IMG/VR virus record: IMGVR_UViG_2721755646_000007
Reading direction: 5' to 3' (one strand)
Source: a virus
Lineage: Duplodnaviria; Heunggongvirae; Uroviricota; Caudoviricetes
DNA length: 43,137 bases
Of the stretch, positions 33,001 to 36,000 are shown piece by piece; the stretch's first letter is position 1; every line of letters begins with the position of its first letter. Made by a program: the position numbers.

Positions 33001-36000
33001 GAGCAGAACCGGCTGATTGATGAACAGGCCAGTCGGGTGAAATCCCTGCAGGAAAAAATCGCAGGATATCAGTATGTTCTGGCGAACCCGGGCTGGACGA
33101 CCGGTGACGGATTCATGATAAACCATCTGACATCGGTGAAGACCGTAACGGAAGGGCTTTCTCAGGCAACAGAGCAGCTTGCCGTTGAGCAGTCCCGTCT
33201 GGCACAGATGCAGGAAAAAGCGCAGTCCATTCAGGATGTGCTTGCCGGGCTGGAAGACCGTCGTGTGGCGTTAATTCGTCAGCAGGCGGCAGAGCAGAAT
33301 AAGGTGTACCAGTCCATGCTGGTTATGAACGGTCAGCATACGGAATTCAACCGTCTGCTGGGGCTGGGGAATGAACTGCTTCAGCAGCGTCAGGGACTGG
33401 TGAATGTACCGTTACGGCTGCCGCAGGCCATTCAATCGAACTATTCCGGCAGATGCTACGACTACGGTCATGAGTTCTCGTATGTTATTGGAATGGCGAG
33501 AGACGTTTTAATTAATCACACACGAGATGTTGATATCAATGAGCCAGACGGACCAACGAATCTTTCCGCATGGATGAGACTTAAGAATAAAGAATTACCT
33601 CCTTCACCGCATCACTACTAACAGATTGCCAACGAAATGACCCAGCTTCGGCTGGGTTTTTATCAGGAGTTCTCATGCTCTATAGCAATATATTGGCGCA
33701 CGCCCGGCGATGTGCACCAGCGGAGTCGTGCGGCTTCGTGGTGAGAACGCCGGAAGGGGAAAGATATTTTCCCTGCGTGAATATCTCCGGTGAGCCGGAA
33801 GATTATTTCCGGATGTCGCCGGAGGACTGGCTGCGGGCAGAAATGCAGGGGGAGATTGTGGCACTGGTCCACAGCCACCCCGGTGGTCTGCCCTGGCTGA
33901 GCGAGGCCGACCGGCGGCTGCAGATAAAAAGTGCACTGTCCTGGTGGCTGGTCTGCCGGGGGGAAATTCATAAATTCCGCTGTGTGCCACATCTGACAGG
34001 ACGGCGCTTTGAGCACGGGGTGACGGACTGTTACACGCTGTTCCGGGATGCCTACCATCTGGCGGGAATTGATATGCCGGATTTTGAGCGTGAGGATGAC
34101 TGGTGGCGCAACGGTCAGAACCTTTACCTGGACAATATGGCGGTCACCGGCTTTTACCGGGTGCCCCTGTCCTCTGCACAGGCGGGCGATATCCTGCTGT
34201 GCTGCTTTGGCGCATCGGTGGCCAATCATGCCGCCATATACTGCGGCAACGGTGAACTGCTTCACCATCTGCCTGAACAACTGAGTAAACGGGAGAGGTA
34301 TTCCGAAAAATGGCAACGACGAACGCATTCAGCCTGGCGTCACCGCCACTGGCACGTATCTGCCTTCACGGGGATTTACAACGATTTGGCCGCCGCCTCA
34401 GCCTGTACGTGAACACGGCAGCGGAAGCCATCCGTGCCCTGTCGCTGCAGATGCCGGGATTCCGCCGTCAGATGAACGAAGGCTGGTACCAGACACGTAT
34501 TCCGACAGCTTCACAAAACCGGAGTCCGGCTCCGGTTTTTGTTGTCATGTCCGGGGAATATTTGTTAGATAAAAAAGAGGAGATAATTCAATAGGGAGTT
34601 AAATTAATGCCGATAAATCTGACATCTTATTTGTGGGTACAGGGACAGAAAGTTGTCCCGGCAGTTGTGTTTTCTAATTTTACTTTAGTGGACTAAGTAA
34701 AAAGGAGTGAGATAAATGCTGCCCACTACAAATATCTCTGTAAATTCTGGAGTAATATCTTTTGAAAGTCCTGTAGATTCACCATCTAACGAGGATGTTG
34801 AAGTTGCCCTCGAAAAGTGGTGTGCTGAGGGAGAATTTAGCGAAAATCGTCATGAGGTTGCATCAAAAATACTTGATGTTATAAGTACTAATGGAGAGAC
34901 TTTATCAATCAGTGAGCCAATAACAACATTACCAGACTTGCTTCCAGGTTCTCTGAAAGAACTGGTTTTGAATGGATGTACAGAGCTTAAATCAATAAAC
35001 TGCTTACCCCCCAACTTATCTTCATTAAGTATGGTTGGATGCTCATCATTAGAGGTTATAAATTGCAGCATACCTGAAAATGTCATTAATTTATCTTTAT
35101 GCCATTGTAGTTCTTTGAAACATATAGAAGGTTCCTTTCCTGAGGCACTCAGAAATTCCGTATATTTAAATGGCTGTAATTCATTAAATGAATCGCAATG
35201 TCAATTCCTTGCATATGATGTCAGTCAAGGCCGTGCCTGCCTGAGCAAAGCTGAGCTTACTGCTGACTTAATTTGGTTGTCAGCTAACCGAACGGGTGAA
35301 GAGTCTGCTGAAGAATTGAATTACTCTGGATGTGACTTGTCAGGTCTAAGTCTTGTAGGGCTGAATTTATCATCAGTAAATTTTTCTGGAGCAGTGCTTG
35401 ATGATACAGATCTCAGGATGAGTGATTTGTCTCAGGCTGTATTGGAAAACTGTTCTTTTAAAAACTCGATTTTGAATGAATGTAATTTTTGTTATGCTAA
35501 TTTATCTAATTGTATTATTAGGGCTTTGTTTGAAAACTCTAATTTCAGCAATTCCAATCTTAAAAATGCATCATTTAAAGGATCTTCATATATACAATAT
35601 CCTCCAATTTTGAACGAGGCTGATTTAACAGGAGCTATTATAATTCCTGGAATGGTTTTAAGTGGTGCTATCTTAGGTGATGTAAAGGAGCTCTTTAGTG
35701 AAAAAAGTAATACCATTAATCTAGGAGGGTGTTACATAGATCTATCTGACATACAGGAAAATATATTATCTGTGTTGGATAACTATACAAAATCAAATAA
35801 ATCAATTTTATTGACTATGAATACATCTGATGATAAGTATAACCATGATAAAGTAAGGGCCGCTGAAGAACTTATCAAAAAAATATCTCTTGACGAATTA
35901 GCGGCGTTCCGGCCCTATGTTAAGATGTCTTTGGCTGATTCATTTAGTATTCATCCTTATTTGAACAACGCAAATATACAGCAATGGCTCGAGCCTATAT

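Follow-up and report, generated by a model that had tools for sequence, protein, structure and literature searches.

The 43,137-nucleotide virus record IMGVR_UViG_2721755646_000007 (the whole stretch was analysed and is referred to below as the window) is a lambdoid prophage of Escherichia coli O157:H7. It gave 99.9-100% matches to O157:H7 strains when searched by megablast against 5,426 complete E. coli genomes. We read it as a defective hybrid prophage whose lambda-type tail module carries two deletion scars, and put the probability of this reading at about 0.85. Junction 1 joins the tape measure gene to the end of a P22-type antirepressor gene (ant), and junction 2 joins the start of tail gene I to the sequence that follows the tail-fibre genes. 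The truncated tail and effector cargo of prophage Sp6 have already been described, and decay of the tail is ordinary and largely documented. Of the two deletions only junction 1 is new.

An earlier examination of the same DNA without database searches (the sequence-only reading) had described a truncated tail module with a short tape measure followed directly by a terminator and gene K, and this layout was confirmed. The open reading frame (ORF) concerned, 31567-33621, encodes 684 amino acids (aa). At junction 1 a single shared A at window position 33430 is both nucleotide 1864 of the tape measure gene and nucleotide 688 of ant, and tape-measure codon 621 joins ant codon 230 directly and in frame. 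The deletion took tape-measure codons 622-1080 and ant codons 1-229 with all that lay between them, namely M, L and both arc-family genes. Residues 1-621 of the fusion ORF are 97.9% identical by tblastn to residues 1-621 of the 1,080-aa tape measure of an O145 prophage. They match PHROG 339 over positions 3-620 of 1,123, and at the nucleotide level this part is 100% identical to Sp6 of O157:H7 strain 180-PT54. Residues 622-684 reproduce residues 230-292 of the 292-aa Ant protein at 100% identity and match PHROG 377/245 (anti-repressor Ant). The Pfam domains of the 684-aa ORF were TMP_3, Phage_HK97_TLTM (profile 1-230 of 295) and P22_AR_C (profile 37-73 of 73). The tape measure is thus not full length, 621 of 1,080 residues being left. 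The atypical AT-rich tail previously ascribed to the tape measure is real in composition (41.7% GC, vs 57.6% GC in the tape-measure part) but is the 3' end of ant and not tape-measure sequence.

Junction 1 was found in none of the collections searched. A 201-bp probe was covered in full by 0 of the 5,426 complete E. coli genomes, its halves matching separately. A 32-mer across the junction was absent from IMG/VR, from the GTDB species representatives and from JGI metagenome contigs, and a 401-bp probe gave no spanning match among 50,697 phage records. An exact-protein look-up in a gene-position index returned no record of the 684-aa fusion protein. The allele, and with it the loss of M and L, is private to this sequence; it is new, and one more instance of prophage erosion.

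Junction 2 removed the rest of I (from codon 65 on), J, lom and the N- and C-terminal tail-fibre genes (stfN and stfC), 6,519 bp in all. Its right end lies 1 nt past the tail-fibre stop codon, just upstream of nleL and espN, and there is essentially no microhomology. The whole of a 201-bp probe was covered in 274 of the 5,426 genomes, and all the matches listed are of O157:H7 type. The typical O157:H7 strains TR01, 180-PT54 and F6294 have the order of the intact relatives described below minus the interval from I codon 65 to the end of stfC. Junction 2 is a known defect of Sp6, called CP-933N in EDL933; it is old and fixed in non-sorbitol-fermenting O157:H7. The cut in gene I had been noticed before as a lambda I N-terminus that diverges after about 66 codons near 34505. 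The N-terminus and the divergence stand, and the break is now placed after 64 codons, at 34502. The two lesions differ in age, junction 2 being fixed in the lineage and the loss of M and L being private. Alignment to intact related prophages, proposed in the sequence-only reading, mapped both deletion end points to the base (33430; 34501/34502). The right end of junction 2 was also considered as the boundary of a mobile cassette. This was rejected, because homology between prophages runs leftward into the tail-fibre gene, and for the same reason the post-stop position of the junction appears coincidental.

The coordinates of these and other features are given in Table 1. Labels beginning with L denote comparison stretches: L003, EDL933 CP-933N; L004, the Sp12-like prophage of 180-PT54; L005, O145:NM FWSEC0002; L008, Sp6 of 180-PT54; L011, strain 493/89.

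Table 1. Features of the 43,137-nt window, with the basis of each assignment.
Feature	Position	Strand	Basis
Presumed rspA remnant, ~29 codons, abutting prophage left end	1..87	+	ORF translation; identical 180-PT54 sequence just after ynfA, partial coding sequence without C-terminus
Integrase pseudogene, Sp12-type, frameshifted, catalytic C-terminal part missing	67..749	-	RefSeq on identical 180-PT54 DNA
Late-gene stretch, terminase to tape measure, 12.2 kb, 100% identical in Sp12-like prophage and Sp6 of 180-PT54; crossover somewhere within	20963..33159	+	Mapping of single-nucleotide polymorphisms vs L004 and L008
Tail assembly chaperone G, intact	30835-31209	+	Pfam Phage_TAC_1 (2e-61)
Tail assembly chaperone T, intact	31233-31514	+	Pfam Phage_tail_T (5e-19)
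Tape measure gene, codons 1-621 of 1,080	31567..33429	+	tblastn, PHROG, Pfam
Junction 1, scar of 3,892-bp deletion, 1 nt (A) microhomology, in-frame fusion	33430	.	Three-way alignment, blast coordinates, exact check vs 180-PT54 Sp6 (L008)
ant (P22-type antirepressor), codons 230-292 and stop, native frame, C-terminal tail of fusion ORF	33430..33621	+	tblastn, Pfam, PHROG
Hairpin (UUCG loop) and U-run, intrinsic-terminator-like	33639..33661	+	Fold -15.2 kcal/mol, z -2.3
Gene K (tail tip protein), intact, 245 aa	33675..34412	+	Pfam Prok-JAB (JAB/MPN) and NLPC_P60 (NlpC/P60)
Gene I, codons 1-64 only	34310..34501	+	Alignment to lambda I (223 aa) and O145 I; tblastn lambda I residues 1-64; Pfam Lambda_tail_I profile 3-46 of 83
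Junction 2, scar of 6,519-bp deletion	34501..34502	.	Blast vs intact O145:NM prophage (34501 = L005 19648, 34502 = L005 26168); alignment and annotation
Conserved post-tail-fibre sequence, strong hairpin (34515-34539) and U-run; normal left border of effector cargo	34502..34568	+	Fold -17.5 kcal/mol
nleL (espX7), HECT-like E3 ligase type III effector, cargo	34716..37064	+	Pfam SopA_C, SopA, pentapeptide repeats; RefSeq on 100% identical DNA
espN, type III effector, cargo	37655..41056	+	Pfam DUF4765 full length; RefSeq annotation
gogB-like fragment	41433-41588	-	Transferred from EDL933 annotation, 100% identical DNA
IS2 pseudogene	41599-42827	-	Transferred from EDL933 annotation, 100% identical DNA
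Transposase fragment	42919-43137	+	Transferred from EDL933 annotation, 100% identical DNA

The tail genes that remain are accounted for as follows. The major tail protein and the G/T pair are present, the former by annotation of a major tail subunit on identical DNA of relatives. K is also present: tblastn gave 100% identity with the K of O145 and 85.8% with that of lambda, and relatives have it annotated as a C40 family peptidase. I survives only as its N-terminal part, and beyond codon 64 its ORF runs through unrelated sequence to a stop at 34594. Lambda and O145-prophage queries for M, L, J, Lom, Stf and Tfa had no match anywhere in the window by tblastn at E<=1e-3, in agreement with the earlier statement that M, L, J and the tail-fibre genes are missing; full-length I is likewise lacking. 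Queries for arc gave no tblastn match in the window either. The P22 immI-like arc/mnt/ant module is therefore incomplete, and ant codons 230-292 amount to half of the P22_AR_C domain. E-values of the supporting homologies ranged from 1e-25 to 0. Set against lambda, whose tail module runs V G T H M L K I J lom stf tfa, the window has 64% identity in I codons 1-64 and a conserved K. The 103-nt overlap of K and I is conserved too, being the same as in lambda (K 14276-14875, I 14773-15444). The tape measure, in contrast, is of the HK97/TMP_3 type and has no detectable similarity to lambda H.

The hairpin that follows the fusion ORF is ant's own: the intact relatives, identical to the window at 100% from 33430 on, have it at the same position behind ant. 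The strong terminator and effector island previously placed after I were also found, as the hairpin at 34515-34539 and the low-GC genes nleL and espN. Neither hairpin was listed by a consensus terminator scan of the + strand, apparently owing to the way in which that scan counts T-runs, and folding was used instead. The 67-bp terminator element at 34502-34568 has copies of about 90% identity in the Sp12-like prophage, at L004 46933-46999 (after the tail-fibre gene) and 47579-47645 (near nleG genes), and may be a common border of effector cassettes. An antisense ORF within K (33663-34328, 221 aa) had no Pfam match and was treated as a non-gene or unknown.

Intact relatives supplied the reference order. 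In O145:NM FWSEC0002 the genes run tape measure (1,080 aa), M, L, arc(-), arc(+), ant, K, I, J, lom, stfN, stfC, a 29-aa ORF, nleL, espN, gogB', insertion sequence (IS) elements, nleB' and espK. Sorbitol-fermenting O157:H- strain 493/89 has this layout as well, at the same site in the chromosome (next to potB). The window shares with both of them the gene order, the cargo and the arc-arc-ant insert between L and K, although only the ant remnant of that insert is left in it. Unlike the window, they keep the full tape measure, M, L, J, lom and both tail-fibre genes, and an I of 225 aa counted from the lambda-type start codon. The insert (L005 17110-18768; L002 4537-6192) is at an unusual site for an antirepressor cassette, and its second arc gene is shorter in the O157:H7 copies (111 nt vs 153 nt). 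Strain 493/89 has followed a different path of decay (L011 19055-22456): I, J, lom and the tail fibres are kept, but a stop codon interrupts espN and the tape measure has a frameshift. An independent deletion is found in EDL933-type genomes (six hits among the complete genomes). It spans 2,162 bp, begins at tape-measure nucleotide ~1184 and reaches into M, and its ends share 8 nt of microhomology. It sits at L003 36038-36045, equivalent to a break at window 32749, and is a third lesion in this tail module. Relative to Sp6/CP-933N the window has additionally lost the interval from the tape-measure C-terminus to ant codon 229, and the EDL933 deletion is a different and smaller one.

The two ends of the window match different prophages. 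Positions 1-33159 are the Sp12-like prophage of 180-PT54 (NZ_CP015832, 2.643-2.687 Mb; L004 5470-38628), one homopolymer insertion/deletion (indel) aside. Extended to 33433, the comparison with this ynfA-adjacent prophage shows one G-homopolymer indel and five single-nucleotide polymorphisms (SNPs) at 33160-33423. Positions 20963-33430 are 100% identical to Sp6 of 180-PT54, and all five SNPs have the Sp6 allele. Positions 33430-43137 (9,708 bp) are 100% identical to the Sp6/CP-933N right arm of EDL933 and TR01. The homopolymer, a run of 10-11 G at about 14540, is the sole difference from 180-PT54 across 33 kb. The five SNPs just before junction 1 had raised the possibility that the junction is a direct non-homologous join of two prophages. 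Since they are the Sp6 allele of 180-PT54, that join was ruled out: junction 1 is a simple deletion within the Sp6 arm, and the crossover between the prophages is homologous and lies upstream of it (20963-33159).

On the left the window resembles Sp12-like prophages in its presumed rspA remnant, dead integrase, xis, ExoVIII-type exonuclease, dicB, relBE, DnaC-type loader, Q, three tRNAs, SASA esterase, and lysis and head genes. Published traits of Sp12 that are matched by the left arm are a disrupted integrase, an ExoVIII-type gene and a DnaC-type helicase loader (PMC2669165). Native Sp12-like prophages go on with M, partial L, J, lom, stf and nleG, whereas the window switches to the Sp6 right arm. 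Sp6 is a lambdoid prophage at potC-potB that carries espX7/nleL, espN, espO1-1 and espK. The window shares with Sp6/CP-933N the junction of I' with the post-tail-fibre sequence, the ant-K-I'-nleL-espN-gogB'-IS2 right arm and the order of the cargo. It differs in that its left arm gives patchy 90-99% matches to CP-933N before ~20.9 kb, and in that it lacks the arm with an intact integrase next to potC that Sp6/CP-933N possesses. Three tRNA genes lie downstream of Q at 14210-14459 and were called by ARAGORN as Met-CAT, Arg-TCG and Arg-TCT. The first is a tRNA-Ile according to RefSeq, presumably with a lysidine-modified CAT anticodon.

The same hybrid was found in strain VTEC+, with the right flank espK-potB-potA and without junction 1. 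VTEC+ has a complete tape measure and retains M, L, arc, arc and ant, and the window is short of those 3,892 bp. A 24.9-kb hybrid probe was covered at 100% in six further finished O157:H7 genomes, those of strains 472, 2571, 146N4, ERL04-3476, Z903 and Z887 (probe coverage only), which brings the hybrid to at least seven complete genomes. Their match spans run about 4 kb beyond the probe and fit an undeleted tape measure-M-L-arc-arc-ant block, VTEC+ being the strain in which this was checked directly. In 180-PT54 the Sp12-like and Sp6 prophages are inverted relative to one another and lie ~0.6 Mb apart. Homologous recombination between prophages makes large inversions around the terminus in O157:H7, even in laboratory culture (PMC8743559). 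The arrangement in the window would be explained by an inversion of ~0.6 Mb through homologous recombination in the shared 12.2 kb. Hybrids of this architecture belong to a type of structural variant already known from O157:H7.

The truncated integrase had been taken as part of one defective element. It is indeed dead, but it belongs to the Sp12-like arm and not to the cargo-bringing Sp6, whose own integrase is intact in reference strains. RefSeq labels the remnant 'Arm DNA-binding domain-containing protein; frameshifted; missing C-terminus', and Pfam Arm-DNA-bind_2 matches a 56-aa N-terminal fragment only. In Sakai, Sp12 is reported to have a disrupted integrase and gave no circular form (PMC2669165). 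The window begins at the start codon of an ORF remnant that abuts the 5'-truncated end of the integrase pseudogene. This remnant (1-87) had no Pfam hit; it probably derives from chromosomal rspA, to judge by the RspA N-terminus and the K-12 gene order. If that assignment holds, a single deletion took both attL and the catalytic domain of the integrase.

The cargo is low in GC content, nleL (782 aa) having 35.5% and espN (1,133 aa) 31.7%. EspX7/NleL, EspN and EspK are placed on Sakai prophage Sp6, which corresponds to CP-933N of EDL933, in published tables (PMC5931665). Sakai Sp9 was considered as the home of nleL and espN and was rejected, the papers giving Sp6 (PMC5931665, PMC2669165). The window stops at 43137 within the transposase fragment, short of espK, and the espK-potB flank is known from the relatives VTEC+ and 493/89 only. 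A 29-aa ORF directly upstream of nleL (34607-34696; WP_115801847.1 in RefSeq) is present wherever the cargo occurs; it had no Pfam match and was treated as a non-gene or unknown. Elsewhere in the window, the long ORF 26165-28504, a frameshifted portal protein by RefSeq annotation in all relatives, contains a 162-bp tandem repeat (27692-28122; 2.7 copies, 95% matches). Self-matches offset by ±162 bp and differing annotated gene lengths among strains suggest that the copy number of this repeat varies.

The following history is proposed. The ancestral order would have been V, G, T, tape measure (1,080 aa), M, L, the arc(-), arc, ant insert, K, I, J, lom, stfN, stfC, terminator, nleL, espN and further cargo to espK. 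An old deletion of 6,519 bp would then have brought I codon 64 up against the base that follows the tail-fibre stop, and a private one of 3,892 bp would have joined tape-measure codon 621 to ant codon 230. Both probably arose by illegitimate (non-homologous) recombination, because there is 0-1 nt of microhomology at both junctions. The hybrid would have been formed by an inversion mediated by RecA or a phage recombinase, leaving the Sp12-like left arm at the ynfA/rspA site. Assembly of the lambda tail starts from J with I, L and K, after which H and M act. With the genes that are left, neither a tail-tip initiator (J, I, L, M) nor a functional tape measure could presumably be produced. Excision would not be expected, as there is no working integrase and probably no cognate attL/attR pair. 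The nleL-espN-espK cargo would then be anchored in the chromosome and movable only by recombination with, or complementation by, co-resident lambdoid prophages.

The sequence-only reading had also held that the element is defective and that its cargo was fixed by deletion. The deletion-truncated tail and the inability to build a tail of its own stand; 'fixed' is an overstatement, as Sakai Sp6 still excises and transfers. In Sakai, Sp6 was scored 'D' (defective) for the minor tail and '-' (genes lacking) for host specificity; it excised spontaneously, and a marker moved at low frequency to K-12 MC1061 and lysogenised it, although the MC1061 lysogens made no particles (PMC2669165). Transfer was presumably helped by other prophages. 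That Sp6 carries junction 2, and loss of the tail is therefore not enough in itself to hold the cargo in place. The dead integrase, and the rearrangement that cut the cargo arm off from the Sp6 int and attL, probably anchor the cargo more firmly than the tail deletions do.

Several points weigh against this account. Junction 1 rests on one sequence; the inversion is deduced from a 43-kb window that contains no chromosomal flank beyond the presumed rspA remnant; no reciprocal hybrid was observed; and the consequences for tail building and excision are drawn from gene content and from the Sakai experiments, not from this strain. Junction 1 might accordingly be an artefact of assembly or consensus calling, or a minority variant of a laboratory culture, the real structure being the full tape measure-M-L-arc-arc-ant order of VTEC+. 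Its absence from 5,426 complete genomes, 50,697 phage records and three contig collections, together with the unrecorded fusion protein, speaks for this. So does the 1-nt change in G-homopolymer length, the only other difference from 180-PT54, which shows that sequencing-type noise exists; O157 prophage regions are moreover rich in repeats and difficult to assemble. Assemblers, however, mis-join at repeats, and the two sides of junction 1 share 1 nt and no repeat. The sequence on either side is error-free relative to close relatives, and real independent deletions are known in this module (2,162 bp in EDL933-type genomes; junction 2 in 274 genomes). We regard an artefact or culture variant as unlikely, though not negligible. 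At junction 2 the abrupt fall in GC content just past the I fragment looks like an insertion boundary, as if the cargo had been inserted into gene I and J and the tail fibres had never been downstream of it. In O145:NM and in O157:H- 493/89, however, cargo that is 99.9% identical from 34502 onward starts 1 nt after the tail-fibre stop, past complete I, J, lom and stf, and no 3' part of I was found beyond the cargo within the window. Insertion is almost certainly wrong.

The truncated layout could also be a selected design, in which the chimera or K has a new role or effector expression is coupled to the late operon. The fusion is in frame (chance 1 in 3), K is intact between both deletions, and three independent deletions have occurred in this tail module. 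Terminator-like hairpins are, however, kept after the fusion ORF and before nleL, the Ant remnant is half of one domain, and junction 1 occurs in a single sequence with no sign of selection. Recurrent deletions are in any case what relaxed selection on a defective prophage predicts, and a functional design is extremely unlikely. It is very unlikely, too, that the three deletions in these closely related strains (6.5 kb; 2.2 kb in EDL933; 3.9 kb here) reflect selection against a partial tail module and not neutral decay. Were that so, the partial module, near-identical in parts to co-resident active lambdoid phages, might poison their tail assembly dominant-negatively, with the in-frame tape measure-Ant chimera arising as a by-product or even acting as an interfering protein.

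On the reading preferred here, that of two deletion scars in a defective hybrid prophage, the odd 684-aa "tape measure" is explained as a fusion of tape measure and antirepressor. The private 3.9-kb deletion could serve as a strain marker or, if it is an artefact, flags an assembly error. The dead integrase and the effector cargo come from two prophages joined by recombination. The prophage should therefore not be read as a single evolving unit: near-identical prophages of O157:H7 both reshuffle and erode.

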